The notes under the pieces: generated by a model
What the model was told of the DNA's origin: nothing
Seen by the model: the letters and a program-made list of their open reading frames with translations, nothing else
The model's database searches: none
Origin: Bilabrum cf. latius
Taxonomy: Eukaryota
Direction: 5' to 3'
DNA length: 27,831 nt
Assembly: GCA_965178125.1 (NCBI GenBank)
Contig: OZ237746.1
Location: 1,302,001-1,329,831, forward strand
Position numbers and translations under genes: made by a program
Shown: positions 3 to 24,121 of the stretch, piece by piece
Position numbering within the stretch: position 1 is the first letter of the stretch
Layout of the letters: each line of letters begins with the position of its first letter

Positions 3-1217
3 AGACTTGGTCTTGGAACTTCAGTGTTCGCTTTAGTGAAAGACGCAAGGAGTGATACAGAATCCTTGCATCTAGCTGCCTCTGCCAGCAGCTCTTCTAG
101 TGCAGGCGGCAGCAGGCGAGTTTACAGTCTGTGCAAGCAATATCGGATGTGCATGGCGATTGAGTGGCTGTCTAACCAAGTAACGTACAATGGACACTTG
201 TCGGCAGGAAGTAAAGCAATTTCAAGGCAAACTATAGGATCCATGTAGACGAGAGCTCTGATGGCACCGCTGGGCGATGCACCTGTAGAGACCGAGCTCT
301 GCGCCCTGTTGGCTGTGTGCAGCCCCAGAGCTGAGTGCTCGGTAGTTTGGCTAGACGGTGGGTATGCAGCACCTCTTGCTGCGACCGTGGCTTCTGCGCT
401 GGTTTCGTAGCCCATATCTGTCTCAGTGACGGCCGCAAGGTTGGCTGGCCCTCGTATAGCTGCTGCCGCGTTGGCGTGCATGCGCGGTGAGTCGGCAGGC
501 ACGGCAGTTGCACCAAGTGCAATTCAAAGGGCCATTTGCTCGTTGTAGTCGCAAAGTACCCCGTCCATGAAACGGTAGACTGACACCAGCAAGGTGAACA
601 TGATGGAATTGCTGCGAGGCGTTGCCGTATTCGTGGCTCTGCTACGCACGGGCATTCCACCTGCTGCCATGTGTTTCATTTCGCCATTTCGATCGCAAGT
701 AGAGGCGATGCGGGAGACTCTGCGCGTTCTTAGTGCGGCTTCTGGCTCTCGTGGGAGTAGTAATGACAGCAAGAGTCCCGCTGTAATTCCTGCGGGGGCT
801 ACAGACGTGACCTCTGGTATAGACTGGCTTTCCTAGCTCGCAACTATAGATGTGGGCACAGTGGATGCGTTTCAAGGGCAGGATCGGGAAGTGGTTGTAC
901 TCAGCATTGTAGACTCTTTTACTGAAAGCCGAAAGTCTGGCAGAGACAGGGATGCAACCACCCTGACACTGCAGGCGCGTCGCGAGCTGGATGGCACTCA
1001 TGTCGGCAACCCGGCCCGGCTGAATGTCAGCATAACACGTGCAAAGAGCAAGCTTGTTCTGTTGGGCTGCATGGGGGATGTCGGCACGAGATCTGAGGAC
1101 TCACAGACCGCTTTTGGTCGCCTGTGCAAGGCTGTTCGAAGGCAGAGGTGGCGGCACGATGCCGGGCGAGCTTTGCATAGTGTGCGGCTTGCTGCGGCGT
1201 GTGAGTTGGATGAGTGA
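3..1217 (+). CDS. DNA2: SF1 DNA2/NAM7-like helicase, C-terminal part (5' end outside window); read with TAG=Gln
   Basis: One frame joins ORFs 24..248, 594..836 and 852..1217 through TAGs at 246, 408, 546, 576 and 834, ending at TGA 1215-1217. Motifs GLGTSVF, QYRM..IEWLSNQVTYNGHL, ISPFRSQV, TVDAFQGQDRE and RLNVSITRAKSKLVLLG. The DNA2 subfamily call comes from motif resemblance only. Confidence 0.8.
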
Positions 1218-1294: not shown

Positions 1295-4200
1295 TCATCT
1301 TCGCTAATAAATGCAACAACTCCCAAATACCTACGTCAGCAGCGCCACCCCAACAGCGGCTGCCAGAATACCCAAGTACTGTTGCCACCTATCCTAGAAC
1401 GTGCTCGCAACAAAGTTCTCCACGAAGCCCTCTGCGGTTACCCTTCGAACACCACCGCTACTGACCCAATCAAAGGATGGACAGCCTGCCTATAGCCTCT
1501 GATCCTCAGTTGCGTGGGCACCAGCCTGGTAGCAGTGTGCTTGTGTCAGGCCCATGGGCGCGTTCGCCATGAAGGTCGGGTTAAAGTATGTTGCAATAAA
1601 TCTTGGAACGGCACTATAGTTTTTCACTCCCCCCACGAAGATGCTATTGAATAGCGCTGCCAGGTTGTTCAGGATTCCTGTGAAAACATGGGCAACCAAA
1701 GCGTCTTCAATGAGCACAGAGCTCAAGTGAGACGTCCAGCTGAGCCACAAGCCACAACCGAGAAAAACTGCAATCATTTCAAGGATGGGCCCAGGCTAGT
1801 CAAGCCTCAGTCCAAGCAGCAAGTACATGATTGGGGCCGTGAGCATGGCAAAGCAGGCGAGGTACAGGGTCTCCTTGATGACCAGAGCAGCGTAGTAGCT
1901 GTGCGGCGAGTACAGTCCAATCGACTGCTCTCTGTAAAACAAAGGACGTGCCTTGAACAACATCGATACCTGCGAGTTGAATACTCCGGCGCAAAAGAAA
2001 CTCATCGTCATCTGGGTCACGCCCAACATGGACAACACAGAGGCTTGGTCGTTCAATGAGTCGCGGCCCTGCCCGAAGAACATAATGCCAACCATGGACC
2101 CGAGAATGACCAGCGTAACAAATCGAGAGCCATTGAACTCGATATTACGAAACTCTCCCACAAGCAGTCGATGCAGCACTAAGCTGAACCTTGCACAGTG
2201 GCCAACCCGCCTGACCTTGATACGACTCGTTGTCTCGGATTGAGAGGTCGGACCTACTGCCAAATGACCGACCTGCCCAGCGTTGTCAAAAGAATGAGCA
2301 CTCTCTATTCCTGCTGAGTCTTTGTCTGACGAGTCAAAGAGACCCAACCCTGGGGCAGCTAGGCCAAAAGGGGCAGATGCTCTGTTGCTCTGCTCGATCG
2401 CCTTTTCCCGATCGTCCTGATACTGCTCGAACAACAGGAGGCTCCTGGCTTGCCGGCTTAAAACTGTCTGAAGATCTTCATCGTGATACTTGGTTGAAGC
2501 TTTGCGGTCGAATCCTCTCGGGGACTTGGGTGATGCCTGTGCTTCCTGCATCGACACAGCCCCTGTGTCTACAGCCAGGCCAGCGAGAGTGGACTTGCCA
2601 CATTTGGCTTGACCAGAAGTGGTACCTCCAACCTGCCGCTGGGCTGATCCAGCCATCCGTAGAGTCCGCTACCTTCCACGTCCACGCTGTGCTGCAGCGC
2701 TGATCTGTGCACAACTGCTCGTCTTCACTGCGCCCATAGCTTCAGTTGCGATCAAAGACACGCGTGCCGACTCAGCCTCCAATTCGTGCAGCATCCACGT
2801 GCCGGGATTCACACGAGGTGGCAAAGGTCGCACCGTCGGACACCGCGTGAAGAAGTCCACCATACGCTGTGCGTTCTATCCAATCGACCCCGAGTACACC
2901 TGGCGACCACCGGGAGACAGCAGCACGAGGTCATCAAAGGCTGTGAACACATCGTAGCTCGGCTGATGAATCGTGCAGACAATGGTGCGGCCCATGTCTG
3001 CAACATTACGCAGGGCCCGCATGACCTGCGAAGCCGACCTGGCGTCCAGTCCTGTGGTTGGCTCGTCAAGAAACAGAATGCTAGGATTGGCTGCCAGCTC
3101 GACTCCCACCGATAGTCGCTTCGACTCTCCAGCAGAAAGCGTGCCAGCTGCTCTGTGTCTTGCGCCCTGCAGCTCTAGAATCTCCAGCAACTCTTCAACT
3201 AGCTGCTTCACGACCTCATCATCGCAACCTAGCTCGGCAGCGAGGCGCAGCCTGGCGTTGAATGCAAGAACCTCCTCTACCTTCGCCGTCGGCATGTGCT
3301 CATCTGTTTGCTCGCAGTAAGCAATCACCGTAGCTCTTCTTCGCTTGCTCAACTCCCTTCCATTGATGCTTATTTTACCCCGTTCCTTGCCTTGGGTCTT
3401 CCTACCTGCCAGCACGTCCATGAGTGTGGTCTTGCCTGCGCCAGTGGCGCCCATTAAACACGTGAGGCGACCAGGAAGCGCCACTCCAGAGACACCTCGT
3501 AGCAGCGGCATGTCTACGGTTGCTGCATTATAAGATTGTTTTCGGGGCTACCCTTCTATACTACGGGCTTTGACTCCTGCATGAGACCTCACCTGGTTAA
3601 ATATAGCGAACTGCCTAGCGTTCTGCTGCATCCGCCTTGCGTGTGCACTCGAGACTCCTACGGAAACTGAGTACCTAACTCCTTCAAACGCAAGTGTACA
3701 TCGCTTGAAGCGGTTCGATATGTGTGACAAACCGCTCCTAGAGACTTGGCTTGCGGCACGTGACCGACCGGGATCGCTGGATACAGAGCTTGTCTCTGAT
3801 GCACTAGCGTACGGGCTCTGGCGGACCGAACCTAACGAGCTACCTGTGGACGCTCGGCGCATCCTAAGCGCCTAGTGAGCCTCAGCATCATGCTCTCGCC
3901 GCGTCCCTGGGCTATAATCGTACTTGCATCCGCGAAGCGCAAGCACCGAAAGAATGAATCCATACAGGATCCACTGCCCGTATAGCATGGGTATTCCCCC
4001 TATCTTCCACGGCAGCTCAGGGTCATGCTGGATCTCAAAAACGTCCAAATAGGCATCTCCTTTCGTCCGGCCAGTCGATGCGGTTGTGATGTTCACTCGC
4101 AGCACAGGGTCAACCAAGCCAGTGTCGTTGCCACCTTGACTGTCTACAACACCGGCAGTGACGTCCGCAGTCACAGTGCCCACCAAACCCAGCGAGTCCT

Positions 4201-6442
4201 GGTACCTTGAGGAGGCAAACTCGTTGATGGCCAGGGATCGAAGCCCCCAGCTAAATGGCGAGATCCAGTAGCACCACCTCATGCCCCAGGGAATGTTGGT
4301 ACGGGTGGCCAAGAATCCACCCATCAGCAGGAAAATGGACGTAAGCAAACCGGTAGCAGACTGCGCTTGCTCCACTGTTGGCAGGGCAAAGGACAGCACC
4401 CTGTCGATGCCAGCCACCGCTAGTTCAACACCAAGCACAATCAAGAAGAAGAATGCCGCTCTTTCAAACTCTGGGACGAAGTCTGCTAGCCAGTATACGA
4501 TACAGCTCAGCACGAGAGAGTTGGCAGCTGCTCTAGGAAGGTGCGTGAGAAATACTGAGAGGACGTAGAACGTCTCGTCCAGCAGACCAGCTCGAGAGAG
4601 CTTGTATGCGACTGCTCTTCCATCAAGCACGGCCTGCATCTCGGGGAAAGCGCCGAATGAAACGTTGAGGCATGCGAACATAGCCATCTGCGGTGAGGTG
4701 GGAATGGGGTACAAACCTGCCCAGGTGTAGGATCCATGCTATGAATCTGTCTATTGCCTGCCAGTAGGAGGTTGCTCACCCCAATTCGAAGCTGAAAGTC
4801 ATCAAGGGACGGGCGGAAGAACACAAGGCCCACTATGGTGGCGAGCACAGCTGTCTGAACAAGTCGAGATATCACAAGCAGTGGATTTCGCATCGTCAGG
4901 AGCATCTACCTACTCATCACAGCGGCCAGTCTGGCACATGCTCCCTATCCAGCTCCCCATCCGTACTTGGCTTGCAGGAATTGGCTGGCCTGCACGGATT
5001 GCTGCAGGTCGTCCCAGTCGCTTGTGGTCTGGCCGTCCTGGGTGCGTCCCAAATACACCCTGCCACCAGCACGCCTGTTTGAGTCGGAGAAACGGGCTGG
5101 TGACTGCCTAGCCAGGGTACGCTACTGCATCGCAGATCCATACCAGGCCAGAGAGTTTCCTGCAACGGAGAGCTCGGCTGGAGTGGGCATGGCGCTGCGA
5201 TCGAATCGGCGGTCGGGGGGCAGTGCCAGAACTGGGTCGGTCACCAAGCCGGCCAGCCAGTCGGCAAAGTCGCCCTCTTCCGGTGCGGAGAAGCCCCTAC
5301 TCGCGAGGTTGTCCTCTAGCTCCTCCCTGGGCCCGTGGTAGATCACGTGCCCATCGCTGAGGAGCACCACGTCGTCGAAGAGCGCATACGTCTCTGGTGT
5401 GGGCTGCTTGAGTGCGAGGACAACGGTGGCGTCCGACACCTTGGCATAATCGCAAAGAGTCTGAACAACATACTCCGCCACCGCTGCATCAAGCCCTGCG
5501 GTAATCTCGTCGCCACAGAACACCCTGGGGGCTGCGATGAGAGCCTCCGCAACTGAGAGGCGGCGGCGCTGGCCACCACTAATGCCACGAACGTTGCGAC
5601 CTCCAACAATGGTGTCTGCGCAGCTCTCTAGGCCGAATAGTCTAATGAAAGCCTCTGCTCTGGTTTGTGGGAAGGAGAACCCCGGGTCAGTGGGGCCGTC
5701 AGCTGCTGCAGCAACTGAGCCGAGAGAAGAGGCTGCTGCAAACTACAGCGTCTCGCGAACAGTGAAGCGAGCCTCATGCAGGTCGTTTTGCGCACAGTAT
5801 GACGCCACTCGTCGAACATCAGCTCCTTGCCCATGCAGCTCAGCAGGATTGGTGCCGTTGAATCGCACGTTCCCGTCAAACGGCTGTTCATTTCCAGCGA
5901 TAACCCTGAGCAGTGTCGAAGATCCCCCGCCCGGGCCTGCCAAAACCAGAGTTGTTGTACCAGGCCTTATTTTCACTGCTCGTGGAATGTAGGCGAAGCA
6001 AAAGCTGCAGTTGTGGAAATGTCAGAGCATTTAGCACCATCTATCAAGCATATCGCCAAGGCCACGGTGATGACTTACTGGTGGTACCGGCGAGTGCATC
6101 AAAGGCAACATGATCAGATGGTTGATAGCTACCACAATAGAGCATGTTCCAGAGCCAGCTAGCGAGGTTCATCGGCTCTGGTGCGCGCCGTTCAGTGGAC
6201 CTCTTGACCTGAACACCATCCAAGTGCACCAGAATACGCGGTGGCATCGCTTCCGCGCATTCATGCTCAATTTTTTGGTACAGTTGCCAGTTCTATCGGC
6301 CTTTTGGCATCGTTGAAACCTTTGCATCGGACGTCACACTTGCATACAGTGGATTCACCACCGTCGAGGTAGTTGGCTGCTTAATCGCCCGTCCTGCAGT
6401 CTTTTTCACGGAATCTTCACTACTTTCTGGAAAAAATTGCAT
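1295..6442 (-). CDS. Full-size ABCG/PDR-type transporter (NBD1-TMD1-NBD2-TMD2), ~1650 aa, exons 6442-6079, 5975-4780 and 4687-1295; TAG=Gln
   Basis: NBD1 has GPGGGSSTLL, TVRETL*FA, CADTIVG, RGISGGQRRR, DEITAGLD and LKQPTPETYALFDD. NBD2 has LMGATGAGKTTLMDVLAGRKT, LFLDEPTTGLD and TIHQPS. Contains 14 in-frame TAGs and ends IY*RR-TGA. The spliced length of 4953 nt is divisible by 3. The start ATG at 6442 is the first after an upstream in-frame TGA. Confidence 0.9.
4688..4779 (-). other. Spliceosomal intron (92 nt) in the ABCG gene
   Basis: GTGAGC...CACCGCAG. Removal joins FQLRIG to MAMFACLNVSFGAFPEM and explains the frame change. Confidence 0.85.
5976..6078 (-). other. Spliceosomal intron (103 nt) in the ABCG gene
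   Basis: GTAAGT...GAGCAG. Removal gives FDALAGTT-M-KIRPGTTTLVLAGPG, the expected lead-in to Walker A. Confidence 0.8.
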
Positions 6443-6620: not shown

Positions 6621-8042
6621 TCACTCATTCTTATCGTGCCCGCCTGCATGAGCATCTACTTCTCTTCCTTGCCTGCCTTTGCCCGCGGGTACCTCTTCGC
6701 TGCTCGCGTACCAGTCATCGTACTCGGGGTGCTTCTCGCGCATCAGCGGGTGCGAGCTGCCGTACCGCATAAATTGCTGGCAGAACCCGACCAGCGATGT
6801 ATCGAAGTGGTGCTGCATTGGTGGACAGCTGCCCTCCACTGCGAGCAGCACGCGCACTCCCCTCTTCCTGCCGCGCACACACACCTCCACGTCCTCGAAT
6901 GCAGCCGAGGGGAATCCCTCGTCAAAGCCACCGGCTTGCTGCAGCACCTGGACATGCGCGCACATGTTGCAGGTGGGCAGGTAGAGCGCCTCGCGCACCC
7001 TGCCCTCGCCTTGCCTGGCCTCTGGCCCGCCGGGCTGGGCGACCGACCCCATAGCTGGATCTGGATCCGAGCGGGTCTCAACGCCGGCACTGTCACGATC
7101 GCTCTCAGGATCTTCTTCATGTACCTGCTCGTGCGCCCGTCCCTTTCCCTGCTCCTATTCATCTTCACGTGCCTCTTCATGTACCTGTGTCTGCAGAGCT
7201 AGTGTCCTTGGGTTCAGCGTGCCCATGAGGTCGTGGAAGCGAGACACATAGTCAGTGCCATGCGCGCGCGTGATGCCTCCCAGCAGGCAGGGTCCGTGCT
7301 CGCGCTGCAGACAGGCCATGCCACGGGCCCATGCGGGGCTGCCCTCGCAGTCCGCGTCCATGAAGAGAACCGACGTGGCGCCCAGGCGCAGTGCAGTTGT
7401 CCATCCGGTGTTGCGGGCTGCACCAGGGCCTAGGTTGCGGCTGTGTCGGAGCAGCAGCACGCGGTGCTATTCCCTCTGGTGTGAGCCCTCCTGTGAGTCA
7501 TCTCTCCTCCTAGACTTCAAAGCGGCAGGTGATCCATCGTCGATGACGACCACCGGAACAGGCCTAACAGAATCTACGGCTCGCCACAAGCTCTTAACGT
7601 CTTCCGGCGTTCGTGCAAGCACGGGAATGATAATAAGCGCATGCTCATTATCGTTCACTGCTTGCGCGAATGCAGGAATCGATGACTGCATTGAATGTCC
7701 GGCAAGTGGAAGTGTTTCGATAGGATCCAGATCCGAAGCACCAAGACAAGGCTACTGACCCCCGTCGCGATCTGCTTCGTTGATAGATACATGTGAGAGC
7801 TAGAGGTCCTTGTGCGTACTGGACGACAGGCTGCATAGCTCGCGCAGTGCTTGCTGTCTGCAGACAGCGATGCGCCGGCGCTCCGCTTGCCACCACTGCT
7901 GTCCAAAATGGTAGCAAGTTACCGCAAGAATCGCTAAGACAACGTTCAAGGTACGATCACTGTACGGAGATGCATGAAGTACATGTATCACCGCATAGTA
8001 TACGGACAGGGCAAGGGAGCTTGCCGACAGGGTCCAAGTCAT
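6621..8042 (-). CDS. Glycosyltransferase family 2 (GT-A fold) with N-terminal hydrophobic segments, ~473 aa; TAG=Gln
   Basis: One frame through TAGs at 7800, 7752, 7467 and 7155, ending TGA. Motifs IIIPV, VVVIDDGS, NLGPGAARNTG, VLFMDADC and GGFDEGF..AFEDVE. The start is uncertain. Confidence 0.82.
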
Positions 8043-8702: not shown

Positions 8703-8707
8703 TGGAG

Positions 8708-8785
8708 TTAGGGTTAGGGTTAGGGTTAGGGTTAGGGTTAGGGTTAGGGTTAGGGTTAGGGTTAGGGTTAGGGTTAGGGTTAGGG
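8708..8785 (+). repeat. Interstitial telomeric tract 1, (TTAGGG)13
   Basis: Perfect TTAGGG repeats. Confidence 0.97.
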
Positions 8786-8979
8786 TATCTGGGGGTCATG
8801 TTAGGATCGGGGCACGCCCTTTTTTGGACCAAAAATAAAAACGCCGCACATTATATATATTTAGATAGCCCTTGATCAGGAGAGTTGATATATGGTTGGT
8901 TGGCGGCACTCATTTCCAATATTGAGCGAGATATGGGGAGGTTTCGGGTCACCAGTTGAGCGGATGATTTTGGCAGGTC
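8786..8979. mobile_element. Short diverged telomere insert (copy 0)
   Basis: Same TTAGGG|TATCT junction as the other inserts, with partial terminal similarity (TATCT..GTCA.G..AGG.TCGGGG). Flanked by telomere tracts. Confidence 0.5.
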
Positions 8980-9387
8980 TTAGGGTTAGGGTTAGGGTTA
9001 GGGTTAGGGTTAGGGTTAGGGTTAGGGTTAGGGTTAGGGTTAGGGTTAGGGTTAGGGTTAGGGTTAGGGTTAGGGTTAGGGTTAGGGTTAGGGTTAGGGT
9101 TAGGGTTAGGGTTAGGGTTAGGGTTAGGGTTAGGGTTAGGGTTAGGGTTAGGGTTAGGGTTAGGGTTAGGGTTAGGGTTAGGGTTAGGGTTAGGGTTAGG
9201 GTTAGGGTTAGGGTTAGGGTTAGGGTTAGGGTTAGGGTTAGGGTTAGGGTTAGGGTTAGGGTTAGGGTTAGGGTTAGGGTTAGGGTTAGGGTTAGGGTTA
9301 GGGTTAGGGTTAGGGTTAGGGTTAGGGTTAGGGTTAGGGTTAGGGTTAGGGTTAGGGTTAGGGTTAGGGTTAGGGTTAGGGTTAGGG
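8980..9387 (+). repeat. Interstitial telomeric tract 2 (~68 units)
   Basis: TTAGGG repeats. Confidence 0.97.
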
Positions 9388-10695
9388 TATCTAATATAAA
9401 GTCAGGGACAGGGTCGGGGAAAAAATATTTTCATCTTCATTTTTTTGTCGAAAATGTGCCCTCTGCGATCTCAGCAACTAGAATAGGTATGAAGATGATT
9501 CAATTTGTTTTGGGACGGCCTAGGGCCATATCATGGGGCAAATGTTCCCCAGGTTCCGTTTTGACCGAGCGGCGACGATACTGGCTGATGAAGATTTACA
9601 TGCCGAAAATGTGCCCTCTGCGATCTCAGCAACTAGAATAGGTATGAAGATGATTCAAACTGTTTTGGGACGGCCTAGGGCCATATCATGGGGCAAATGT
9701 TCCCCAGGTTCCGTTTTGACCGCGCGGCGACGATACTGGCTGATGAAGATTTACATGCCGAAAATGTGCCCTCTGCGATCTCAGCAACTAGAATAGGTAT
9801 GAAGATGATTCAAACTGTTTTGAGACGGCCTAGGGCCATATCATGGGGCAAATGTTCCCCAGGTTCCGTTTTGACCGCGCGGCGACGATACTGGCTGATG
9901 AAGATTTACATGCCGAAAATGTGCCCTCTGCGATCTCAGCAACTAGAATAGGTATGAAGATGATTCAAACTGTTTTGGGACGGCCTAGGGCCATATCATG
10001 GGGCAAATGTTCCCCAGGTTCCGTTTTGACCGCGCGGCGACGATACTGGCTGATGAAGATTTACATGCCGAAAATGTGCCCTCTGCGATCTCAGCAACTA
10101 GAATAGGTATGAAGATGATTCAAACTGTTTTGGGATGGCCTAGGGCCATATCATGGGGCAAATGTTCCCCAGGTTCCGTTTTGACCGCGCGGCGACGATA
10201 CTGGCTGATGAAGATTTACATGCCGAAAATGTGCCCTCTGCGATCTCAGCAACTAGAATAGGTATGAAGATGATTCAAACTGTTTTGGGACGGCCTAGGG
10301 CCATATCATGGGGCAAATGTTCCCCAGGTTCCGTTTTGACCGCGCGGCGACGATACTGGCTGATGAAGATTTACATGCCGAAAATGTGCCCTCTGCGATC
10401 TCAGCAACTAGAATAGGTATGAAGATGATTCAAACTGTTTTGGGACGGCCTAGGGCCATATCATGGGGCAAATGTTCCCCAGGTTCCGTTTTGACCGCGC
10501 GGCGACGATACTGGCTGATGAAGATTTACATGCCGAAAATGTGCCCTCTGCGATCTCAGCAACTAGAATAGCCGTCCCCGTGAAATCTCCCAGAAATTTC
10601 TGGATTCCGGGTCCACATTTGCGACCCAACGACACTCAGGGTCAAATATATCTAAAACAAATGAGTGGAATATAACTATAACCACTAAATAGATT
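9388..10695. mobile_element. Telomere-inserted element copy A1 (non-coding: terminus, 155-bp array, ~124-bp tail)
   Basis: Begins TATCTAATATAAAGTCAGGGACAGGGTCGGGGAAAAAATATTTTCATCTTCA and is flanked by telomere tracts. Confidence 0.75.
9449..10571. repeat. 155-bp satellite subfamily A, ~7.2 units
   Basis: Near-identical units with period 155 (ORF starts at 9533, 9688, 9843 and so on). Confidence 0.95.
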
Positions 10696-11343
10696 TTAGG
10701 GTTAGGGTTAGGGTAGGGTTAGGGTTAGGGTTAGGGTTAGGGTTAGGGTTAGGGTTAGGGTTAGGGTTAGGGTTAGGGTTAGGGTTAGGGTTAGGGTTAG
10801 GGTTAGGGTTAGGGTTAGGGTTAGGGTTAGGGTTAGGGTTAGGGTTAGGGTTAGGGTTAGGGTTAGGGTTAGGGTTAGGGTTAGGGTTAGGGTTAGGGTT
10901 AGGGTTAGGGTTAGGGTTAGGGTTAGGGTTAGGGTTAGGGTTAGGGTTAGGGTTAGGGTTAGGGTTAGGGTTAGGGTTAGGGTTAGGGTTAGGGTTAGGG
11001 TTAGGGTTAGGGTTAGGGTTAGGGTTAGGGTTAGGGTTAGGGTTAGGGTTAGGGTTAGGGTTAGGGTTAGGGTTAGGGTTAGGGTTAGGGTTAGGGTTAG
11101 GGTTAGGGTTAGGGGTTAGGGTTAGGGTTAGGGTTAGGGTTAGGGTTAGGGTTAGGGTTAGGGTTAGGGTTAGGGTTAGGGTTAGGGTTAGGGTTAGGGT
11201 TAGGGTTAGGGTTAGGGTTAGGGTTAGGGTTAGGGTTAGGGTTAGGGTTAGGGTTAGGGTTAGGGTTAGGGTTAGGGTTAGGGTTAGGGTTAGGGTTAGG
11301 GTTAGGGTTAGGGTTAGGGTTAGGGTTAGGGTTAGGGTTAGGG
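10696..11343 (+). repeat. Interstitial telomeric tract 3
   Basis: TTAGGG with variants TAGGG (10714) and TTAGGGG (11109). Confidence 0.97.
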
Positions 11344-11876
11344 TATCTAATATAAAGTCAGGGACAGGGTCGGGGAAAAAATATTTTCATCTTCATTTTT
11401 TTGTCGAAAATGTGCCCTCTGCGATCTCAGCAACTAGAATAGGTATGAAGATGATTCAAACTGTTTTGGGACGGCCTAGGGCCATATCATGGGGCAAATG
11501 TTCCCCAGGTTCCGTTTTGACCGAGCGGCGACGATACTGGCTGATGAAGATTTACATGCCGAAAATGTGCCCTCTGCGATCTCAGCAACTAGAATAGGTA
11601 TGAAGATGATTCAAACTGTTTTGGGACGGCCTAGGGCCATATCATGGGGCAAATGTTCCCCAGGTTCCGTTTTGACCGCGCGGCGACGATACTGGCTGAT
11701 GAAGATTTACATGCCGAAAATGTGCCCTCTGCGATCTCAGCAACTAGAATAGCCGTCCCCGTGAAATCTCCCAGAAATTTCTGGATTCCGGGTCCACATT
11801 TGCGACCCAACGACACTCAGGGTCAAATATATCTAAAACAAATGAGTGGAATATAACTATAACCACTAAATAGATT
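11344..11876. mobile_element. Telomere-inserted element copy A2 (~2.2 units of 155-bp subfamily A, same tail as A1)
   Basis: Both ends are identical to A1. Confidence 0.75.
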
Positions 11877-13249
11877 TTAGGGTTAGGGTTAGGGTAGGGT
11901 TAGGGTTAGGGTTAGGGTTAGGGTTAGGGTTAGGGTTAGGGTTAGGGTTAGGGTTAGGGTTAGGGTTAGGGTTAGGGTTAGGGTTAGGGTTAGGGTTAGG
12001 GTTAGGGTTAGGGTTAGGGTTAGGGTTAGGGTTAGGGTTAGGGTTAGGGTTAGGGTTAGGGTTAGGGTTAGGGTTAGGGTTAGGGTTAGGGTTAGGGTTA
12101 GGGTTAGGGTTAGGGTTAGGGTTAGGGTTAGGGTTAGGGTTAGGGTTAGGGTTAGGGTTAGGGTTAGGGTTAGGGTTAGGGTTAGGGTTAGGGTTAGGGT
12201 TAGGGTTAGGGTTAGGGTTAGGGTTAGGGTTAGGGTTAGGGTTAGGGTTAGGGTTAGGGTTAGGGTTAGGGTTAGGGTTAGGGTTAGGGTTAGGGTTAGG
12301 GTTAGGGTTAGGGTTAGGGTTAGGGTTAGGGTTAGGGTTAGGGTTAGGGTTAGGGTTAGGGTTAGGGTTAGGGTTAGGGTTAGGGTTAGGGTTAGGGTTA
12401 GGGTTAGGGTTAGGGTTAGGGTTAGGGTTAGGGTTAGGGTTAGGGTTAGGGTTAGGGTTAGGGTTAGGGTTAGGGTTAGGGTTAGGGTTAGGGTTAGGGT
12501 TAGGGTTAGGGTTAGGGTTAGGGTTAGGGTTAGGGTTAGGGTTAGGGTTAGGGTTAGGGTTAGGGTTAGGGTTAGGGTTAGGGTTAGGGTTAGGGTTAGG
12601 GTTAGGGTTAGGGTTAGGGTTAGGGTTAGGGTTAGGGTTAGGGTTAGGGTTAGGGTTAGGGTTAGGGTTAGGGTTAGGGTTAGGGTTAGGGTTAGGGTTA
12701 GGGTTAGGGTTAGGGTTAGGGTTAGGGTTAGGGTTAGGGTTAGGGTTAGGGTTAGGGTTAGGGTTAGGGTTAGGGTTAGGGTTAGGGTTAGGGTTAGGGT
12801 TAGGGTTAGGGTTAGGGTTAGGGTTAGGGTTAGGGTTAGGGTTAGGGTTAGGGTTAGGGTTAGGGTTAGGGTTAGGGTTAGGGTTAGGGTTAGGGTTAGG
12901 GTTAGGGTTAGGGTTAGGGTTAGGGTTAGGGTTAGGGTTAGGGTTAGGGTTAGGGTTAGGGTTAGGGTTAGGGTTAGGGTTAGGGTTAGGGTTAGGGTTA
13001 GGGTTAGGGTTAGGGTTAGGGTTAGGGTTAGGGTTAGGGTTAGGGTTAGGGTTAGGGTTAGGGTTAGGGTTAGGGTTAGGGTTAGGGTTAGGGTTAGGGT
13101 TAGGGTTAGGGTTAGGGTTAGGGTTAGGGTTAGGGTTAGGGTTAGGGTTAGGGTTAGGGTTAGGGTTAGGGTTAGGGTTAGGGTTAGGGTTAGGGTTAGG
13201 GTTAGGGTTAGGGTTAGGGTTAGGGTTAGGGTTAGGGTTAGGGTTAGGG
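11877..13249 (+). repeat. Interstitial telomeric tract 4 (~1.37 kb)
   Basis: TTAGGG with a TAGGG variant at 11895. Confidence 0.97.
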
Positions 13250-13310
13250 TATCTATTATAAAGTCAGGGACAGGGTCGGGGAAAAATATTTTCATCTTCA
13301 CTTTTTGACA

Positions 13311-15117
13311 AAATCCTGCGGGATACGATCTCGGCAACCACAGGAGATATGAAGACCGTTCAAATTGCGTTGGGACGGCCTAGGGCCACATCATTGGCCA
13401 AATGTTCCTCAGGTTCCGCTTTTGACGCGCGGCGCCAATATTGGGCCTTGAAGATTTTCATGCTGAAATCCTGCGGGATACGATCTCGGCAACCACAGGA
13501 GATATGAAGACCGTTCAAATTGCGTTGGGACGGCCTAGGGCCACAACATTGGCCAAATGTTCCTCAGGTTCCGCTTTTGACGCGCGGCGCCAATATTGGG
13601 CCTTGAAGATTTTCATGCTGAAATCCTGCGGGATACGATCTCGGCAACCACAGGAGATATGAAGACCGTTCAAATTGCGTTGGGACGGCCTAGGGCCACA
13701 ACATTGGCCAAATGTTCCTCAGGTTCCGCTTTTGACGCGCGGCGCCAATATTGGGCCTTGAAGATTTTCATGCTGAAATCCTGCGGGATACGATCTCGGC
13801 AACCACAGGAGATATGAAGACCGTTAAAATTGCATTGGGACGGCCTAGAGCCACATCATTGGCCAAATGTTCCTCAGGTTCCGCTTTTGACGCGCGGCGC
13901 CAATATTGGGCCTTGAAGATTTTCATGCTGAAATCCTGCGGGATACGATCTCGGCAACCACAGGAGATATGAAGACCGTTCAAATTGCGTTGGGACGGCC
14001 TAGGGCCACATCATTGGCCAAATGTTCCTCAGGTTCCGCTTTTGACGCGCGGCGCCAATATTGGGCCTTGAAGATTTTCATGCTGAAATCCTGCGGGATA
14101 CGATCTCGGCAACCACAGGAGATATGAAGACCGTTCAAATTGCGTTGGGACGGCCTAGAGCCACATCATTGGCCAAATGTTCCTCAGGTTCCGCTTTTGA
14201 CGCGCGGCGCCAATATTGGGCCTTGAAGATTTTCATGCTGAAATCCTGCGGGATACGATCTCGGCAACCACAGGAGATATGAAGACCGTTCAAATTGCGT
14301 TGGGACGGCCTAGGGCCACATCATTGGCCAAATGTTCCTCAGGTTCCGCTTTTGACGCGCGGCGCCAATATTGGGCCTTGAAGATTTTCATGCTGAAATC
14401 CTGCGGGATACGATCTCGGCAACCACAGGAGATATGAAGACCGTTCAAATTGCGTTGGGACGGCCTAGAGCCACATCATTGGCCAAATGTTCCTCAGGTT
14501 CCGCTTTTGACGCGCGGCGCCAATATTGGGCCTTGAAGATTTTCATGCTGAAATCCTGCGGGATACGATCTCGGCAACCACAGGAGATATGAAGACCGTT
14601 CAAATTGCGTTGGGACGGCCTAGGGCCACAACATTGGCCAAATGTTCCTCAGGTTCCGCTTTTGACGCGCAGCGCCAATATTGGGCCTTGAAGATTTTCA
14701 TGCTGAAATCCTGCGGGATACGATCTCGGCAACCACAGGAGATATGAAGACCGTTCAAATTGCGTTGGGACGGCCTAGGGCCACATCATTGGCCAAATGT
14801 TCCTCAGGTTCCGCTTTTGACGCGCGGCGCCAATATTGGGCCTTGAAGATTTTCATGCTGAAATCCTGCGGGATACGATCTCGGCAACCACAGGAGATAT
14901 GAAGACCGTTAAAATTGCATTGGGACGGCCTAGGGCCACATCATTGGCCAAATGTTCCTCAGGTTCCGCTTTTGACGCACGGCGCCAATATTGGGCCTTG
15001 AAGATTTTCATGCTGAAATCCTGCGGGATACGATCTCGGCAACCACAGGAGATATGAAGACCGTTCAAATTGCGTTGGGACGGCCTAGGGCCACAACATT
15101 GGCCAAATGTTCCTCAG
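13311..15117. repeat. 155-bp satellite subfamily B, ~11.7 units
   Basis: Period 155. Shares TTGGGACGGCCTAGG, CAAATGTTCC.CAGGTTCCG and CGCGCGGCG with subfamilies A and C. Confidence 0.95.
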
Positions 15118-15154
15118 ATTCATTGTACTTCATTCAGTGCAAGTATGGCGTATT

Positions 15155-17432
15155 GAAACCTACTCGGGGGAGGTTTCAAAACCTACCCAGGGCGGTTTCA
15201 AAACCTACCCAGGGCGGTTTCAAAACCTACCCAGGGCGGTTTCAAAACCTACCCAGGGCGGTTTCAAAACCTACCCAGGGCGGTTTCAAAACCTACCCAG
15301 GGCGGTTTCAAAACCTACCCAGGGCGGTTTCAAAACCTACCCAGGGCGGTTTCAAAACCTACCCAGGGCGGTTTCAAAACCTACCCAGGGCGGTTTCAAA
15401 ACCTACCCAGGGCGGTTTCAAAACCTACCCAGGGCGGTTTCAAAACCTACCCAGGGCGGTTTCAAAACCTACCCAGGGCGGTTTCAAAACCTACCCAGGG
15501 CGGTTTCAAAACCTACCCAGGGCGGTTTCAAAACCTACCCAGGGCGGTTTCAAAACCTACCCAGGGCGGTTTCAAAACCTACCCAGGGCGGTTTCAAAAC
15601 CTACCCAGGGCGGTTTCAAAACCTACCCAGGGCGGTTTCAAAACCTACCCAGGGCGGTTTCAAAACCTACCCAGGGCGGTTTCAAAACCTACCCAGGGCG
15701 GTTTCAAAACCTACCCAGGGCGGTTTCAAAACCTACCCAGGGCGGTTTCAAAACCTACCCAGGGCGGTTTCAAAACCTACCCAGGGCGGTTTCAAAACCT
15801 ACCCAGGGCGGTTTCAAAACCTACCCAGGGCGGTTTCAAAACCTACCCAGGGCGGTTTCAAAACCTACCCAGGGCGGTTTCAAAACCTACCCAGGGCGGT
15901 TTCAAAACCTACCCAGGGCGGTTTCAAAACCTACCCAGGGCGGTTTCAAAACCTACCCAGGGCGGTTTCAAAACCTACCCAGGGCGGTTTCAAAACCTAC
16001 CCAGGGCGGTTTCAAAACCTACCCAGGGCGGTTTCAAAACCTACCCAGGGCGGTTTCGAAACCTACCCAGGGCGGTTTCAAAACCTACCCAGGGCGGTTT
16101 CAAAACCTACCCAGGGCGGTTTCAAAACCTACCCAGGGCGGTTTCAAAACCTACCCAGGGCGGTTTCAAAACCTACCCAGGGCGGTTTCAAAACCTACCC
16201 AGGGCGGTTTCAAAACCTACCCAGGGCGGTTTCAAAACCTACCCAGGGCGGTTTCAAAACCTACCCAGGGCGGTTTCAAAACCTACCCAGGGCGGTTTCA
16301 AAACCTACCCAGGGCGGTTTCAAAACCTACCCAGGGCGGTTTCAAAACCTACCCAGGGCGGTTTCAAAACCTACCCAGGGCGGTTTCAAAACCTACCCAG
16401 GGCGGTTTCAAAACCTACCCAGGGCGGTTTCAAAACCTACCCAGGGCGGTTTCAAAACCTACCCAGGGCGGTTTCAAAACCTACCCAGGGCGGTTTCAAA
16501 ACCTACCCAGGGAGGTTTCAAAACCTACCCAGGGAGGTTTCAAAACCTACCCAGGGCGGTTTCAAAACCTACCCAGGGCGGTTTCAAAACCTACCCAGGG
16601 CGGTTTCAAAACCTACCCAGGGCGGTTTCAAAACCTACCCAGGGCGGTTTCAAAACCTACCCAGGGCGGTTTCAAAACCTACCCAGGGCGGTTTCAAAAC
16701 CTACCCAGGGCGGTTTCAAAACCTACCCAGGGCGGTTTCAAAACCTACCCAGGGCGGTTTCAAAACCTACCCAGGGCGGTTTCAAAACCTACCCAGGGCG
16801 GTTTCAAAACCTACCCAGGGAGGTTTCAAAACCTACCCAGGGCGGTTTCAAAACCTACCCAGGGCGGTTTCAAAACCTACCCAGGGCGGTTTCAAAACCT
16901 ACCCAGGGCGGTTTCAAAACCTACCCAGGGAGGTTTCAAAACCTACCCAGGGAGGTTTCAAAACCTACCCAGGGAGGTTTCAAAACCTACCCAGGGAGGT
17001 TTCAAAACCTACCCAGGGAGGTTTCAAAACCTACCCAGGGAGGTTTCAAAACCTACCCAGGGCGGTTTCAAAACCTACCCAGGGCGGTTTCAAAACCTAC
17101 CCAGGGCGGTTTCAAAACCTACCCAGGGCGGTTTCAAAACCTACCCAGGGCGGTTTCAAAACCTACCCAGGGCGGTTTCAAAACCTACCCAGGGCGGTTT
17201 CAAAACCTACCCAGGGCGGTTTCAAAACCTACCCAGGGAGGTTTCAAAACCTACCCAGGGCGGTTTCAAAACCTACCCAGGGAGGTTTCAAAACCTACCC
17301 AGGGAGGTTTCAAAACCTACCCAGGGAGGTTTCAAAACCTACCCAGGGAGGTTTCAAAACCTACCCAGGGAGGTTTCAAAACCTACCCAGGGAGGTTTCA
17401 AAACCTACCCAGGGAGGTTTGAAACCTACCCT
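15155..17432. repeat. 22-bp minisatellite (GGTTTCAAAACCTACCCAGGG[C/A]), ~100 units
   Basis: Direct tandem array without spacers. Confidence 0.97.
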
Positions 17433-17697
17433 AGGTGTGGGTTTGGGAATCCAGTGGTTATTGACCGATATTCAATGTTGTGGCTCGTTCTACGTAGCCA
17501 TATGTATGCGTTAACCTCCTTGGTCGATACATCGCTTTGACATCAGGTATTCGTTGGCTTATAGTCAAGACTAAATAGATTGCGTCCTGGCTCCTACTAT
17601 CCCGTCCTAACGGGTCACTGGCTGGCACTCTGGCAAGCTCCTCTCACAAGCTGGCCCAGCTGCCACTGACCTCAATTGGTATCCGCCTGGCTGCTTT

Positions 17698-19233
17698 TCA
17701 CTCGTTATCGGAGGAGGGTTCCGCATCGACAGCTGCCAGGAGCGCCTCAACAGCGTCCACGTCTGCTGCATTGAGATCTCCTTCCGCCGTCTTCTCGAGG
17801 GCCGTCATCAGGCCTACGAGCGTGCCCAACCCGTCGTCCCTCTCTTGAATTGTTTCCTGCACGTCCTCGAGCATGTCGTCGAGAGTTCGGCTGACGCCCA
17901 GCGCTATGTCATCGCAGGCAGCGAGGATGCGGTCCACCAGGTGCCGCTGCTAGTCGGTGAAGCCGTTGTCATCCACTCCACCGTCGTTCTCAGAGTCGTC
18001 TTGCTGGTTCTGGGCCTCGTTCTCTTCTTCCTCATCCAGCTCGTCCTGATCCTCCTCGTCCTGCTGCACGAGTTCTATCGGAGCCTCATCCTCGTCCTCT
18101 TCATCGGCTGCGTCTGCGTGGTATCGATCACCGATCTCCTCTTCATCCTCCTCAGAGTCCTGTCGAGGCAGTGATGCTGCTGCTCCACTCCTTGCGCCTC
18201 TTGCTCCCCTCTTGTCCTGGCCAACGGCGTGGCGAGCTCCTCCGCCATAGCCCGGTTGGAGAATGGGCGATCGCTTGTGCTGTATCTTAGCCCGAGGTGC
18301 CGCTTCAGTCGCCTTCCTGCGCTCCGGTTCTGCCGGTTGCGCACCTTCATCCCTCGGCTTTCCCTTTGACTTTCCCTTTGACTTGCCCGCGGCCTTGGTC
18401 CTGGCCTTCAATTTGGCCTTTGCCTTTTCCCTGGCCTTGGCCTCCGCTCTCCGCTTGGGGCCGAGTAGGTCGTTGTTCAGTCGCTCGGTCTATGAGTCGC
18501 TGGACTCTGAGCCGTCTGAATCTTGCTCGCCTCGTTTCCTCTGGGCCTTGTAGGCACTGTGGTCCGCGACACCGTCGTCGGGGTCGTCCTCGTCGTCGTC
18601 GACCATGGCACTCCGTTTGTCCTTGCCAGCACGGGGTGCTCCACTCGGCGAAGCAGCAGCGGCTCCCGCAGAAGCATCTTGGTCCCCTGCGGCTGCCGCG
18701 GCAGAGTCCTTGACTGCCATGTCAAACACGTCTTGGAACACAGCCTGCATGCCTCCACGCGCACGCACAGAGGCTTTCCCAGCTCCGTAGTCGCAGACGA
18801 ACTTGATCGCGGTCTTGTAGTTCCTCCGCAAGCCATCCATGCCTGCCTTGAACCAAGGATTGTGGCTGGTAGAGTAGCCGCTGTCGCGCAGGCCCATGAG
18901 CATCTAATTCATCTTGCGGTAGCCTGGCGAGCTGGTGCCGCTAGTTGATGCAGCCGGATATAGGCGGTGACTCAGCACCTTCAGCATGTCAGGCGGCAGA
19001 TCGGACTCATTCAGGTCCAGCATGGCATCCACGCAGGCTTTGATGCCCTCTTTCTTGGTCCCCTAGTAGTGCTCGGTAGACCCGCAGAGTAACCCGCAAT
19101 CTTGGTGGAGGCCCACGAGGGAGATCAGCAGGACTTGCTTGGCAGCAGACGTGCTGACGCCTGAAGCCAGGGCAGCCACGACGGGGCGGGAGGCCTTGGT
19201 GTGCTTGACGCTGTAGCTCTTTGCGGCGGCCAT
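17698..19233 (-). CDS. Element ORF1, 511-aa hypothetical protein with Lys/Ala-rich and Asp/Glu-rich tracts; TAG=Gln
   Basis: ATG at 19233 (MAAAKSYSVK), in-frame TAGs at 19063, 18904, 18490 and 17950, TGA at 17698. The frame is preserved in diverged copies C1 and C2. Confidence 0.75.
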
Positions 19234-19442
19234 AGTACTCTGCGGTGCTGGGGGAACACGGGTAAGGCCACGAACAGGCGCTTGGATGCGGCAGCGAACA
19301 CGGACATGAGACCCAGGGAGTCTCCAGGGCAAGCTCGAGGGCAAAGAAAAAGAAGGCCACGACCCCGCGCACTCGGTCTCAGACCCGGGACCCATGATGT
19401 TAGGTCGATCCCCCAGTCGTGGGGGGGCGGACCCCAGCCCAG

Positions 19443-19457
19443 AAAAAAATTAAAAAA
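19443..19457 (-). terminator. Putative Pol III terminator (TTTTTTAATTTTTTT)
   Basis: T runs start 3 nt after the tRNA-like sequence. Confidence 0.55.
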
Positions 19458-19460
19458 GAT

Positions 19461-19540
19461 CGCCCCAACGGGAATCGAACCTCGGGGGTAGGCCTGGGTG
19501 CGATTACCAACCGTACGCAATACCACTACACCACCACAGC
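19461..19540 (-). ncRNA. tRNA-like or pseudo-tRNA Pol III unit (nominal anticodon GGT)
   Basis: A box TGGTGTAGTGG, B box GGTTCGATTCC, 7-nt loop TTGGTAA and downstream T6/T7 runs. Acceptor and T stems pair poorly. Confidence 0.6.
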
Positions 19541-20114
19541 AACCCACGCGAAACCGAAAAAAAAATACAGATTCGCATCAAAAGTGCACGCAACTTGCAC
19601 TTGTCACGCCGAAACCTACCCGTTCACCCAACGAGCAGCGCGAAATCAGAAACACTCATATTGCGCTCCTTGTATTCAATTGCAGAGGCGCATACTTGGC
19701 ATATAGCTACTATAGCATATTGTGCATACAACCCTAAAGCAAACGTGAGTCAAATCGATGGGGTATGCGTGGGGATTGCCTTGCGCAATGCGCTTGCTGC
19801 AACGTGGTTCAGACGTTTGGCTCAATTGCGCGACGGCAAGCACTCGTTGGAACTAATCTCGCGCATATTATCAAATAATATAACATACTGCAAACAATTG
19901 CGCGGCGATATATAGGCTGCGCGCCCAATGCTCACTTTGCTTGCGGCAGGTGTGCTGCGACAACATTTGTGGTGGCCCGGATCAGGTTGCGGAACCTGAT
20001 GCGCGGCACCGCCGTGACGAGTGCGCCACCAGGGAACAACGCATCGTACCATCATACTAATCACATCCCAAGTATATTATATATCCTTGTGGCATCTCTG
20101 TCCGCAGTCTGGTC

Positions 20115-22370
20115 ATGGCGCAGTCCACGTACGACGCCACCAAGCATGTGAAGGCTCTCGACTACCTTCGGGCCTTCCTGGACCGCCGCGCGAAGGGCTA
20201 CGCTCAGAACCCGCATCGCGTGCGCATCGGAGTCCCAGGGCCACTTCAACCAGGAGGTGCCGCCCTGCCTGGCCCGCCGGCCGGCGAGGCGCAGGCCCAG
20301 ATCCCGGCCCAGGTGGGGCCAGCGCCAGGCGGCCATGCCGCCGGGGGGGGCGATGCGGCAGGCCTGCCGGCCCCCGCCCCAGCCATCGGCGAGCATGCTC
20401 CGGAGCCCCAGCACCAGCAGCAAGAGGGCGCCCACCAACCACCACCTGGTGCAGCTCTTGCTGCTGGCCAGCAGGCGATGGCCGCCGCCCCGCCCCAGCA
20501 CCCCGCTGGTCCGGGTGCCAACCTGCCGGTCCCAGGAGGCTTGCAGCCCGAGCCGCCAGCTGGCGATGCCGACGCCTTCCTCCCGATCCCGGAGCCCCAG
20601 CAGGAGCCTGCAGGTGGGCCAGCCGGCGTCGGTCCGGCCCCTCCAGCAGCCGAGCAGCAGCCAGCTGCCCAGGCTGCCCAGCACCAACTCGTCCCTGGGC
20701 CCGTGCCTCTCGCCGAGGTGCCCGTCCTGGCCGGGGTCGGCGCAGGGGAGGACGCGATGGAGGACGACGAGCCCCCAGAAGCGGTCCAGGCCATCTTCCT
20801 CGGGCGCCAAGCCGCCCACGCGGCCACCCAGGCAGCTCGGCAGGCCATGGTCTGGGATGCTCAGGGCCAGCAGCCGCTCTTCGGGGCAGAGGGAGGAGCG
20901 CCCGAGCTGCCCATCCCCGGAGTCGTGTTCGCTGCCGGTGCAGAGGCAGCCGGCGCCCAAGGCGGTGGCGCAGGCCCAGACGCCGGAGGGGAGGTCGGTG
21001 CGCCACCCGTGCAGGCGTGGAACCTGGTCGTCGGCGACCCGGGGGGAGCGCAGGGAGAGGAGGCCCTGGCCGTCAACCTCCCGCCCGAGTACCGGTTCGG
21101 CATGCACGAGGCGACGGACGACCTCGCGCAGCACCCCATGCTGGCCTACCACATATGGGAGGTGGACGACGAGGCGGTGCAGGCCCTGCAGGGCCTGCTG
21201 ACCTGCGTTGGCAGGCAGGAGCTGCCTCCCGAGGTGTGGAGGGCGCTCGCACCTCCAGTGATGGAGACGGTGACCATGCAAGGCATGCGGCGCTGGTGGG
21301 CGTACCAGAGGCGCGCCGTTGTCGTCGTGGACAGCCTCCTGCATGCCGAGACTGATGCTGCCGGCGTGGAGCAGCGCGCGCAGAGGCGCGGCCGCTTTCT
21401 CGTGCAGCTCGTTGGCTGGACTGACATCACCAAGATGCTGGAGAGCGAAGACCTGAACGAGGAAGGGGCTGCCTTCATTCGGAGCAAGCTGGCTTCGGTG
21501 GCGGTCAGCTTCTGGCCGTCTCCGATGCTGGCGGAGCCCGGGCTGCACAGCCACAAGCTCTCTCCGCTCCGCACGGAGTGGGATCACTACATCGAGTACA
21601 ACCGCGTGGACGAGACGGTCTTTGACGCGGTCGGGCTCTCCGAGCAGCCTCCAGCGTTCGTGTACGAGGACGAGGACGAGGACGAGATGGAGGAGGGGCC
21701 GGCGGCGCAGCCGGCTGGGGCGGAGGAGCATGCAGAGGGCGACGAAGATGCCGGGTATGAGGCTGGAGAAGGCGAGTGGGGTGGGGAAGGCCAGTGGGAC
21801 TCGGACGGAGACCAAGGCGGCGACGAGGAAGCGGATGGTGGAGATCCTGCCGCGGGGGCTTTCGGAGCTGCGGATGCCGAGCTGGAAGGCGAGCCTGAAG
21901 AGGAGCAGGAGGCCGCCCCGGATGTGCTGCGGAACCCACCAGACGGCATGGCGGCCCCCGTGGCGGTCCGCTCTGAGCTCTCCGATGTCGACGCCATGGA
22001 GGTGGTCGGGATCCTAGCCGGCGCCGGAGCCTCCCAGGAGGTGCAGACCAGCCCGTTCATGCTGGTGCTTGGGGGGCCGGTGTCACGGCTCCTGCTGGAC
22101 GAGCCGCTGGACCAAGCCTACGGCCTCATCGACGTGCTGATTGGAGCCGACTCGGCGACGCAGGATGGGGTCCTCTGCGGGCGCAGGGGTCTGCAGAGGG
22201 ACGGGGGGCAGATCAGGGTGCAGTCGGCCACGCAGCAGCACCAGCGCACCGAGGTGGAGACGAGCGGCTCATCCAGGCCCCGGCTCGGCTACAGCATCGT
22301 CTTCAACCGGCACATCCCCACGTAGGAGCGGGACAATCCCGGCACGCCGAGGACTCACGGCGCGTACTAC
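20115..22370 (+). CDS. Element ORF2, >750-aa hypothetical protein (P/A/Q/G-rich N-terminus, globular core, acidic tract), truncated by telomere
   Basis: 736-codon GC-rich ORF. TAG at 22323 reads through to ERDNPGTPRTHGAYY and then TTAGGG. A TATATTATATAT stretch lies ~30-40 nt upstream of the ATG. Confidence 0.75.
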
Positions 22371-22647
22371 TTAGGGTTAGGGTTAGGGTTAGGGGTTAGG
22401 GTTAGGGTTAGGGTTAGGGTTAGGGTTAGGGTTAGGGTTAGGGTTAGGGTTAGGGTTAGGGTTAGGGTTAGGGTTAGGGTTAGGGTTAGGGTTAGGGTTA
22501 GGGTTAGGGTTAGGGTTAGGGTTAGGGTTAGGGTTAGGGTTAGGGTTAGGGTTAGGGTTAGGGTTAGGGTTAGGGTTAGGGTTAGGGTTAGGGTTAGGGT
22601 TAGGGTTAGGGTTAGGGTTAGGGTTAGGGTTAGGGTTAGGGTTAGGG
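22371..22647 (+). repeat. Interstitial telomeric tract 5
   Basis: TTAGGG with one TTAGGGG variant near 22389. Confidence 0.97.
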
Positions 22648-22708
22648 TATCTAATATAAAGTCAGGGACAGGGTCGGGGAAAAAATATTTTCATCTTCAC
22701 TTTTTGTC

Positions 22709-24045: not shown

Positions 24046-24090
24046 TTAGGGTAGGGGTTAGGGGGGGGTAGGGGGTTTAGGTTAGGGTTA

Positions 24091-24121
<31 letters not shown>

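Follow-up and report, generated by a model that had tools for sequence, protein, structure and literature searches.

The meanings of UAA and UAG nearly always change jointly, and how a release factor could lose UAG alone while keeping UAA and UGA as stops is unsettled. This question is raised by a 27,831-nucleotide stretch of DNA from Bilabrum cf. latius (assembly GCA_965178125.1, contig OZ237746.1, positions 1,302,001 to 1,329,831; hereafter the window), which forms the end of contig C12 in a genome of 48.6 Mb and 111 contigs. A gene for a full-size ABC transporter on its minus strand (Table 1) contains, once spliced, 14 in-frame TAG codons and no TAA, alongside 22 CAA and 48 CAG codons. Has UAG alone been reassigned in this organism and, if so, to which amino acid? 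Alignments, gene ends and tRNA genes make it very probable that the nuclear code reads UAG as glutamine and retains UAA and UGA as stops, the arrangement of Iotanema and of the old NCBI table 15.

TAG and TAA within genes and at gene ends

The TAG codons of the ABC transporter gene begin at positions 6295, 5745, 5124, 4947, 4908, 3874, 3550, 2878, 2671, 1798, 1492, 1396, 1333 and 1306, the final one being the third-last sense codon. All 14 are covered by contigs from runs X5 or X6 with zero letter differences, and those at 6295, 5745, 4947 and 4908 sit in contigs that are themselves spliced; the RNA status of the X5 and X6 contigs was judged by such GT-AG joints. No strain differences were found at the TAG sites in these contigs, and differences at 5281-5359 came from short, paralogue-like contigs. 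The first-pass annotation had counted 28 in-frame TAG and no TAA over five reading frames. With a presumed choice of those frames, this count was reproduced (14 in the ABC gene, 5 in the helicase gene, 4 in the glycosyltransferase gene, 4 in the open reading frame (ORF) at 17698-19395 and 1 in its partial copy at 25819-26580), with 14 of the 28 falling inside coordinates 1295-6442. Its other descriptions also held: none of the five frames ends in TAA (all five end in TGA), and the introns given as about 100 nt are 92 and 103 nt in length, both spliced in public contigs. The two copies of the subtelomeric ORF show no swap of TAG for CAG, as the single aligned TAG is TAG in both. The window alone is suggestive, because just four to six TAA codons are expected in the ABC gene by hand calculation (approximately 6 from the CAA/CAG ratio, or 4 from the off-frame TAA:TAG ratio of 12:44).

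This doubt is removed at the level of the genome. In 19 dynein frames comprising 57,933 codons, there are 262 TAG and 0 TAA, against approximately 46 TAA expected from the CAA/CAG ratio under table 6, in which both UAA and UAG encode glutamine. These frames (2,070 to 3,333 codons each) were opened with TAA and TGA alone as stops, and some may span in-frame introns; no excess of TAA, TGA or frame breaks accompanies their TAGs. A-ending codons are disfavoured (CAA 367, CAG 2082), TAG accounts for about 10% of glutamine codons, and the TAG share correlates with the CAA share over the 19 dyneins (Spearman 0.68). Hand counts inside Pfam matches gave 85 TAG, 2 TAA and 3 TGA for kinases (n=148), 20 TAG, 0 TAA and 0 TGA for dynein AAA_6 domains (n=28) and 48 TAG, 1 TAA and 2 TGA for Ras (n=65). 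All 3 TAA codons in these 241 matches are intronic or at exon edges, as is one kinase TAG, and the two TGA codons inspected of the five are intronic. An in-frame exonic TAA at a conserved glutamine, which would have pointed to table 6, was therefore sought and not found in the 57,933 dynein codons, and the proposal that UAG was reassigned alone stands. Contamination was ruled out as the origin of the TAG-bearing genes, which are matched on dozens of large contigs, whereas the only other 18S type (see below) is confined to a contig of 17.9 kb. TAG use is uneven: there is 1 TAG in 34 histone domain matches and 4 TAG versus 129 CAA/CAG in PRP8 (L109), while use is far higher in some dyneins (43 in L101). 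Such unevenness is expected of a minor codon with one tRNA gene.

Gene ends were counted only if fixed by a marker, and 30 markerless kinase tails were left out. Among the 43 marker-defined ends, 33 are TGA, 10 are TAA and none is TAG. For Ras, a cysteine prenylation-type motif stands at the end in 20 of 30 loci (16 TGA, 4 TAA). For the dyneins, the conserved C-terminus is reached in 13 of 19 frames (10 TGA, 3 TAA); five others run off the stretch and one breaks earlier. For the histones, 29 of 30 loci represent 8 distinct types (6 TGA, 2 TAA), and one H3 is closed by TAA although its final residues are those of paralogues closed by TGA. PRP8 ends in TGA at its usual C-terminus, and the release factor eRF1 has its TAA at the point that also closes 79 of 86 homologues. 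Among the stops, TGA predominates and TAA is minor; the role of TAA, which the window genes could not display, is thus seen directly at 10 of 43 ends.

These ends also bear on whether UAG has a dual meaning, coding for glutamine within genes but terminating some of them, as happens under the context-dependent codes of Condylostoma or Blastocrithidia. Because eRF1 retains T32, E55, NIKS, Y125, C127 and F131, some UAG recognition could persist, and the sample contains only 43 ends. However, TAG occurs at none of them, and internal TAGs lie close to where genes terminate: the ABC gene has one at a distance of three codons, and L098 and L142 each have one no more than 20 codons away. We consider a dual meaning very improbable.

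The amino acid at UAG, its tRNA and the release factor

Each of the 19 dynein frames, with TAG written as X, was aligned to as many as 40 homologues from a set of 120, and 157 of the 262 TAGs fell in columns where 20 or more rows were aligned. Where columns were at least 90% conserved, TAG faced glutamine in 22 of 36 cases (glutamate in 6, arginine in 3 and five other residues once each); as controls, glutamine stood opposite CAG in 314 of 480 such columns and opposite CAA in 31 of 52. For TAG, the log-likelihoods summed to +16.8 for glutamine, -137.8 for glutamate and -414.4 for tyrosine. This method assigned the correct amino acid to all 61 sense codons, and it favoured none of leucine, glutamate, serine and tyrosine at TAG. 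Individual conserved sites were also compared. The Ras G3 glutamine, the catalytic residue, was found at 18 sites in 30 loci using a pattern that admitted glutamine codons, TAG and TAA only; it is encoded by TAG at 9, CAG at 6, CAA at 3 and TAA at none. In eRF1 (human numbering, with frequencies among 86 homologues, here and below), the codon for Q44 is TAG where 82 homologues have glutamine, and the codon at position 69 is TAG where 82 have leucine and 4 have glutamine. In the L095 dynein, 8 of 18 TAG sites lie opposite a glutamine of the Cafeteria protein. Based on these alignments, we infer that glutamine is inserted at TAG.

A single-copy nuclear tRNA gene with anticodon CUA was identified on the minus strand at G000:C23:907607-907679 (L009:1501-1573), the best nuclear hit at 69.8 bits. 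ARAGORN labels it tRNA-Pyl, but this is just the program's name for a CUA anticodon. The genome also encodes one tRNA-Gln(TTG) and two tRNA-Gln(CTG), and two class Ib synthetase genes are read as glutaminyl-tRNA synthetase (L254) and glutamyl-tRNA synthetase (L255). Neither the 48 Rfam hits, for which 63 of 780 candidates were scored, nor two pattern scans yielded a nuclear tRNA with a UUA anticodon, although searches of this kind overlook tRNAs that contain introns or depart from the usual form. The same 48 hits include two nuclear tRNA-Ile genes with anticodon GAT (L015, G000:C32:91173-91245; L081, C4:952092-952164) and no tRNA-Ile with anticodon AAT, whereas the alanine and threonine tRNAs use A34. 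A nuclear tRNA-Ile(GAT) without an AAT counterpart is unusual for a eukaryote.

In a comparison with 28 of the organism's own tRNA genes, a set lacking those for His, Asp, Trp and Leu, the nearest to the CUA tRNA was tRNA-Tyr(GTA), with 37 matching positions against 31 for the next; 10 of 358 background pairs reach this score. Its acceptor stem matches tRNA-Tyr at 12 of 14 positions including C1-G72, a level reached by 3 of 358 background pairs, and its anticodon stem matches at 8 of 10. The D arm resembles those of Gln(UUG) and Glu, and G73 is as in Gln(UUG). The tRNA looks mosaic, with Tyr-like acceptor and anticodon stems, a Gln/Glu-like D arm, a Ser-like T arm and G73. It is conceivable, though rather unlikely, that it was recruited from tRNA-Tyr (by GUA to CUA and A73 to G changes and acquisition of a Gln-like D arm) and not from tRNA-Gln(CUG). 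We treat this origin as a lead only, because background pairs reach the score and the comparison set is incomplete. In E. coli, an A73G amber tRNA-Tyr is reported to accept glutamine. If the tyrosine origin were true, a stop codon would have been captured for glutamine by a tRNA that switched amino acid.

The same resemblance could be taken to mean that the CUA tRNA keeps its tyrosine identity and that UAG is read as tyrosine or as a mixture of glutamine and tyrosine. C1-G72 is indeed one of the eukaryotic tyrosine identity elements, which the available text of PMC9976931 gives as A73, C1-G72, G34 and U35; the same text includes G73 and U35 among bacterial glutamine determinants and gives no eukaryotic glutamine set. 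The CUA tRNA lacks both A73 and G34, however, and the alignments do not accommodate tyrosine: it occupies none of the 36 highly conserved TAG columns and falls 431 log units below glutamine, and TAG serves as the Ras G3 glutamine at 9 of 18 sites. A tyrosine reading is extremely improbable.

Ordinary table 6, under which high GC content would simply make TAA scarce, draws on the disfavour of A-ending codons and on the low power of the window alone. It does not fit the absence of TAA where about 46 are expected, nor the failure of the scans to find a UUA tRNA, and TAA stands directly after prenylation motifs (4), at conserved dynein ends (3), at histone ends (2 types) and at the eRF1 end. These terminal TAA codons already refute it unless the 10 genes are read through, and its probability is vanishingly small.

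The eRF1 gene is single and contains two in-frame TAGs, those at codons 44 and 69. Its product keeps G31-T32-S33, E55, NIKS, S70, Y125, C127 and F131. Inspection of the N domain, which the first-pass annotation had proposed, revealed changes in both the TASNIKS and the YxCxxxF motifs. G29A, N30D, I35V, F117P and K130H each occur in 0 of 86 homologues, while S60V (1/86) and N129S (2/86) are rare. According to the available text of PMC4381064, N129 is among the residues proposed to read a third-position G, and N30A is without effect in yeast. Two candidate causes were weighed. First, glutamine at residue 69 was ruled out, as it is common in eRF1 loci without internal stops. Second, N129S as the sole cause is weakened by the presence of S129 in loci such as L210 and L198. 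Two partial eRF1 calls, P0002 and P0019, were truncated by standard gene calling.

We propose that a CUA tRNA charged with glutamine would pair with UAG but not with UAA, and that UAA would therefore not have been captured and never dragged along with UAG. eRF1 would have lost most of its grip on a third-position G after A, via some of G29A, N30D, I35V, S60V, F117P, N129S and K130H. TAG may then have spread as a minor glutamine codon, probably from CAG by C-to-T change.

Lineage, spread of the code and features of the window

The best named matches to both eRF1 (69%) and dynein (66%) are from Cafeteria roenbergensis. An eRF1 tree (43 of 121 rows) groups the organism with Cafeteria and an unnamed clade (97/87), with long branches and without resolving the order of the three, and a dynein tree (37 rows, approximately 1,200 columns, quick search) places it as sister to the Cafeteria clade with a Shimodaira-Hasegawa-like approximate likelihood ratio test (SH-aLRT) value of 99. 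The two protein trees support placement of the organism as a bicosoecid stramenopile near Cafeteria. A 1700-nt 18S array, which may be Cafeteria-like, lies on the window's contig, and a cox1 search brought up no close relative with a species name, its hits at 94% and 89% lacking one. Because the protein trees set it beside Cafeteria and far from fornicates and ciliates, the independent origin that the first-pass annotation had suggested gains in weight, and the reassignment probably took place once the lineage had separated from Cafeteria, and independently of those groups. The mitochondrial contig (38.4 kb) carries a tRNA with anticodon TCA, which matches the UGA = Trp code of Cafeteria and Cafileria mitochondria (available text of PMC6972860 and PMC6723347). 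On this contig (G000:C111, L267-L270; 38,401 bp, 24% GC), the recognisable genes share a strand, TAA closes all 28 plus-strand ORFs, and the low number of tRNAs found by ARAGORN, only 10, suggests heavy tRNA import.

A second 18S type of 1802 nt is present on a 17.9-kb contig (L004, G000:C95:6099-7900); it is presumably dinoflagellate-like and probably derives from a co-cultured organism. The runs that hold the window (X5-X7) bear the codes of other organisms, which fits a hitchhiker in culture.

A survey of metagenome eRF1 genes kept 80 loci of 377. One of these, L174, is 82% identical in DNA to this organism; it has one in-frame TAG (L174:209) opposite a CAG here and ends in TGA. This one codon suggests that the code is older than this strain. 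The eRF1 of L216 (P0019), from the neighbouring clade, has two in-frame TAG codons (L216:122 and L216:1250), both opposite glutamines of L210, 0 TAA, a TGA end and strongly altered N-domain motifs; the L210 eRF1 has no internal TAG and a TAA end. On the strength of two codons, there is roughly an even chance that L216 represents a second, separate UAG = Gln event. If so, the relatives of Cafeteria would be a non-ciliate hot spot of amber reassignment. Two further metagenome loci, L230 and L234, have internal stops; L230, whose frame contains TAA as well as TAG, resembles an ordinary table-6 organism.

The existence of L174 also bears on whether the TAGs are assembly errors, pseudogene lesions or codons edited away in RNA, which we give next to no probability: although contigs drop rare variants and the runs are not certified as RNA, spliced contigs from two studies keep the TAGs unchanged, the single eRF1 gene requires the reading of two of them, the dynein frames show no parallel excess of TAA, TGA or frame breaks, and this relative has a TAG of its own opposite CAG.

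Several observations weigh against UAG = Gln with UAA and UGA as stops, or against parts of it. Of the 36 highly conserved TAG columns, 14 are not glutamine, slightly above the rate for CAG. In a neighbour-codon test on 107 coding-like of 200 long ORFs (67,656 codons), glutamine enrichment was 1.23 and that of tyrosine 1.40. The CUA tRNA matches the organism's tRNA-Tyr (37 positions) better than its tRNA-Gln(CUG) (31), and the tRNA survey scored 63 of 780 candidates. Two of the eRF1 states (glutamine at residue 69 and S129) are not diagnostic, and 43 gene ends are a small sample. Finally, the standard nuclear code of Cafeteria rests on full-length database proteins and on PMC6972860, which in its available text names a non-standard code only for the mitochondrion.

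In the window (Table 1), the frames of the helicase-type, ABC transporter and glycosyltransferase genes and of the two subtelomeric ORFs are long once TAG counts as sense. The window includes genes of 53-60% GC followed by a chromosome end, and the TTAGGG telomere recognised in the first-pass annotation does reach the end of the contig. From 8707 to 27831, TTAGGG arrays alternate with other elements: blocks of a 155-bp satellite, an array of 22-bp units (15156-17431) and inserts that contain ORFs. The inserts at 17698-19449, 20061-22370 and 25819-26580 have no Pfam match, and two of them are cut directly by telomere repeats.

Table 1. Positions of genes, exons, introns and repeats in the window
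Feature	Coordinates	Strand	Details
Superfamily-1 helicase-type gene (AAA_12), 3' part	3-1217	+	5 in-frame TAG, 0 TAA, TGA end
ABCG/PDR-type transporter gene, full-size, 1650 codons	1295-6442	-	PF00005, PF01061; splice joints in contigs
ABC gene exons	6442-6079, 5975-4780, 4687-1295	-	ATG at 6442, TGA at 1297-1295
ABC gene intron 1, 103 nt, GT..AG	5976-6078	-	joint in contigs of runs X5 and X6
ABC gene intron 2, 92 nt, GT..AG	4688-4779	-	joint in contig of run X5
Glycosyltransferase family 2 gene	6621-8042	-	4 in-frame TAG downstream of first ATG (8042), 0 TAA, TGA end
Subtelomeric ORF without Pfam match	17698-19395	-	4 in-frame TAG, 0 TAA, TGA end; weak evidence
Partial copy (82% aa) of the 17698 ORF, cut by telomere array, without Pfam match	25819-26580	-	1 TAG, TGA end
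Terminal TTAGGG array, 209 copies, end of contig C12	26578-27831	.	repeat count

Comparison with known codes and significance

The code described here adds an independent case to a rare class that was already known. The fornicate Iotanema spirale has identical codon assignments, with no sign of UAG use as a stop in the available text of PMC5304391, but it belongs to an unrelated lineage and differs in three respects. First, its main stop is UAA, whereas here it is TGA (33 of 43 ends). Second, its eRF1 carries T32G, whereas T32 is intact here. Third, its CUA tRNA is only a prediction, with tRNA-Gln(CUG) as the predicted source, whereas here the gene itself is present and has a closer match than tRNA-Gln(CUG). 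The ciliates Hartmannula sinica and Trochilia petrani use the same UAG = Gln code on similar alignment evidence (PMC11687900 and PMC10089648, available text), and Protocruzia tuzeti is listed with them in the consulted part of PMC11687900. According to that part, H. sinica and T. petrani yielded no suppressor tRNA, in contrast to the CUA tRNA present here, and UAA ends 86.9-98.3% of genes in the UAG-reassigned genomes of that study, a prevalence offered as the reason that UAA remains a stop; among the ends counted here, TAA has the smaller share (10 of 43). UAG is likewise uncoupled from UAA in the rhizarian exLh (Leu), in TARA phyllopharyngean ciliates (Leu) and in Scotinosphaera (Ser, per the same portion of PMC11687900). 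These codes differ in amino acid, and neither leucine nor serine is favoured here. Table 6, which that source assigns to many ciliates, ulvophytes, hexamitins, Streblomastix and Amoeboaphelidium, shares UAG = Gln and a UGA stop with the present code, but here UAA is a stop and is never found in frame.

Closer relatives provide a contrast. The genomes of Cafeteria roenbergensis and Cafeteria burkhardae are 34-36 Mb in size with 70-71% GC (PMC6972860, available text), as compared to 48.6 Mb here. In Cafeteria the eRF1 motifs are canonical and no reassignment has been reported for the nucleus, whereas here eRF1 is altered and UAG appears to be reassigned. No nuclear reassignment in a stramenopile was encountered in the searched literature, a scope outside which supplements and most subscription journals fall; in particular, none appears in the available text of PMC11412368, PMC13768787, PMC6723347, PMC8547959, PMC6972860, PMC10120064, PMC12817076 or PMC12220804. 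It is likely that the stramenopile case has so far gone unreported. If so, it would be the first stop-codon reassignment in a stramenopile nucleus.

For UAG-only glutamine codes in general, no suppressor tRNA is shown in the surveyed literature, as far as its available text goes, and the T32G explanation from Iotanema is inapplicable here. This genome holds a CUA tRNA, a gene of the glutaminyl-tRNA synthetase type and an eRF1 whose candidate changes are few, and it has an apparently standard-code relative, so that the question of how UAG is lost on its own can be tested directly. It also indicates that UAA can remain a stop while being a minor one in a GC-rich genome. In practical terms, standard gene callers truncate this organism's proteins (for example P0002 and P0019), and viruses that read TAG as glutamine gain a candidate host type.

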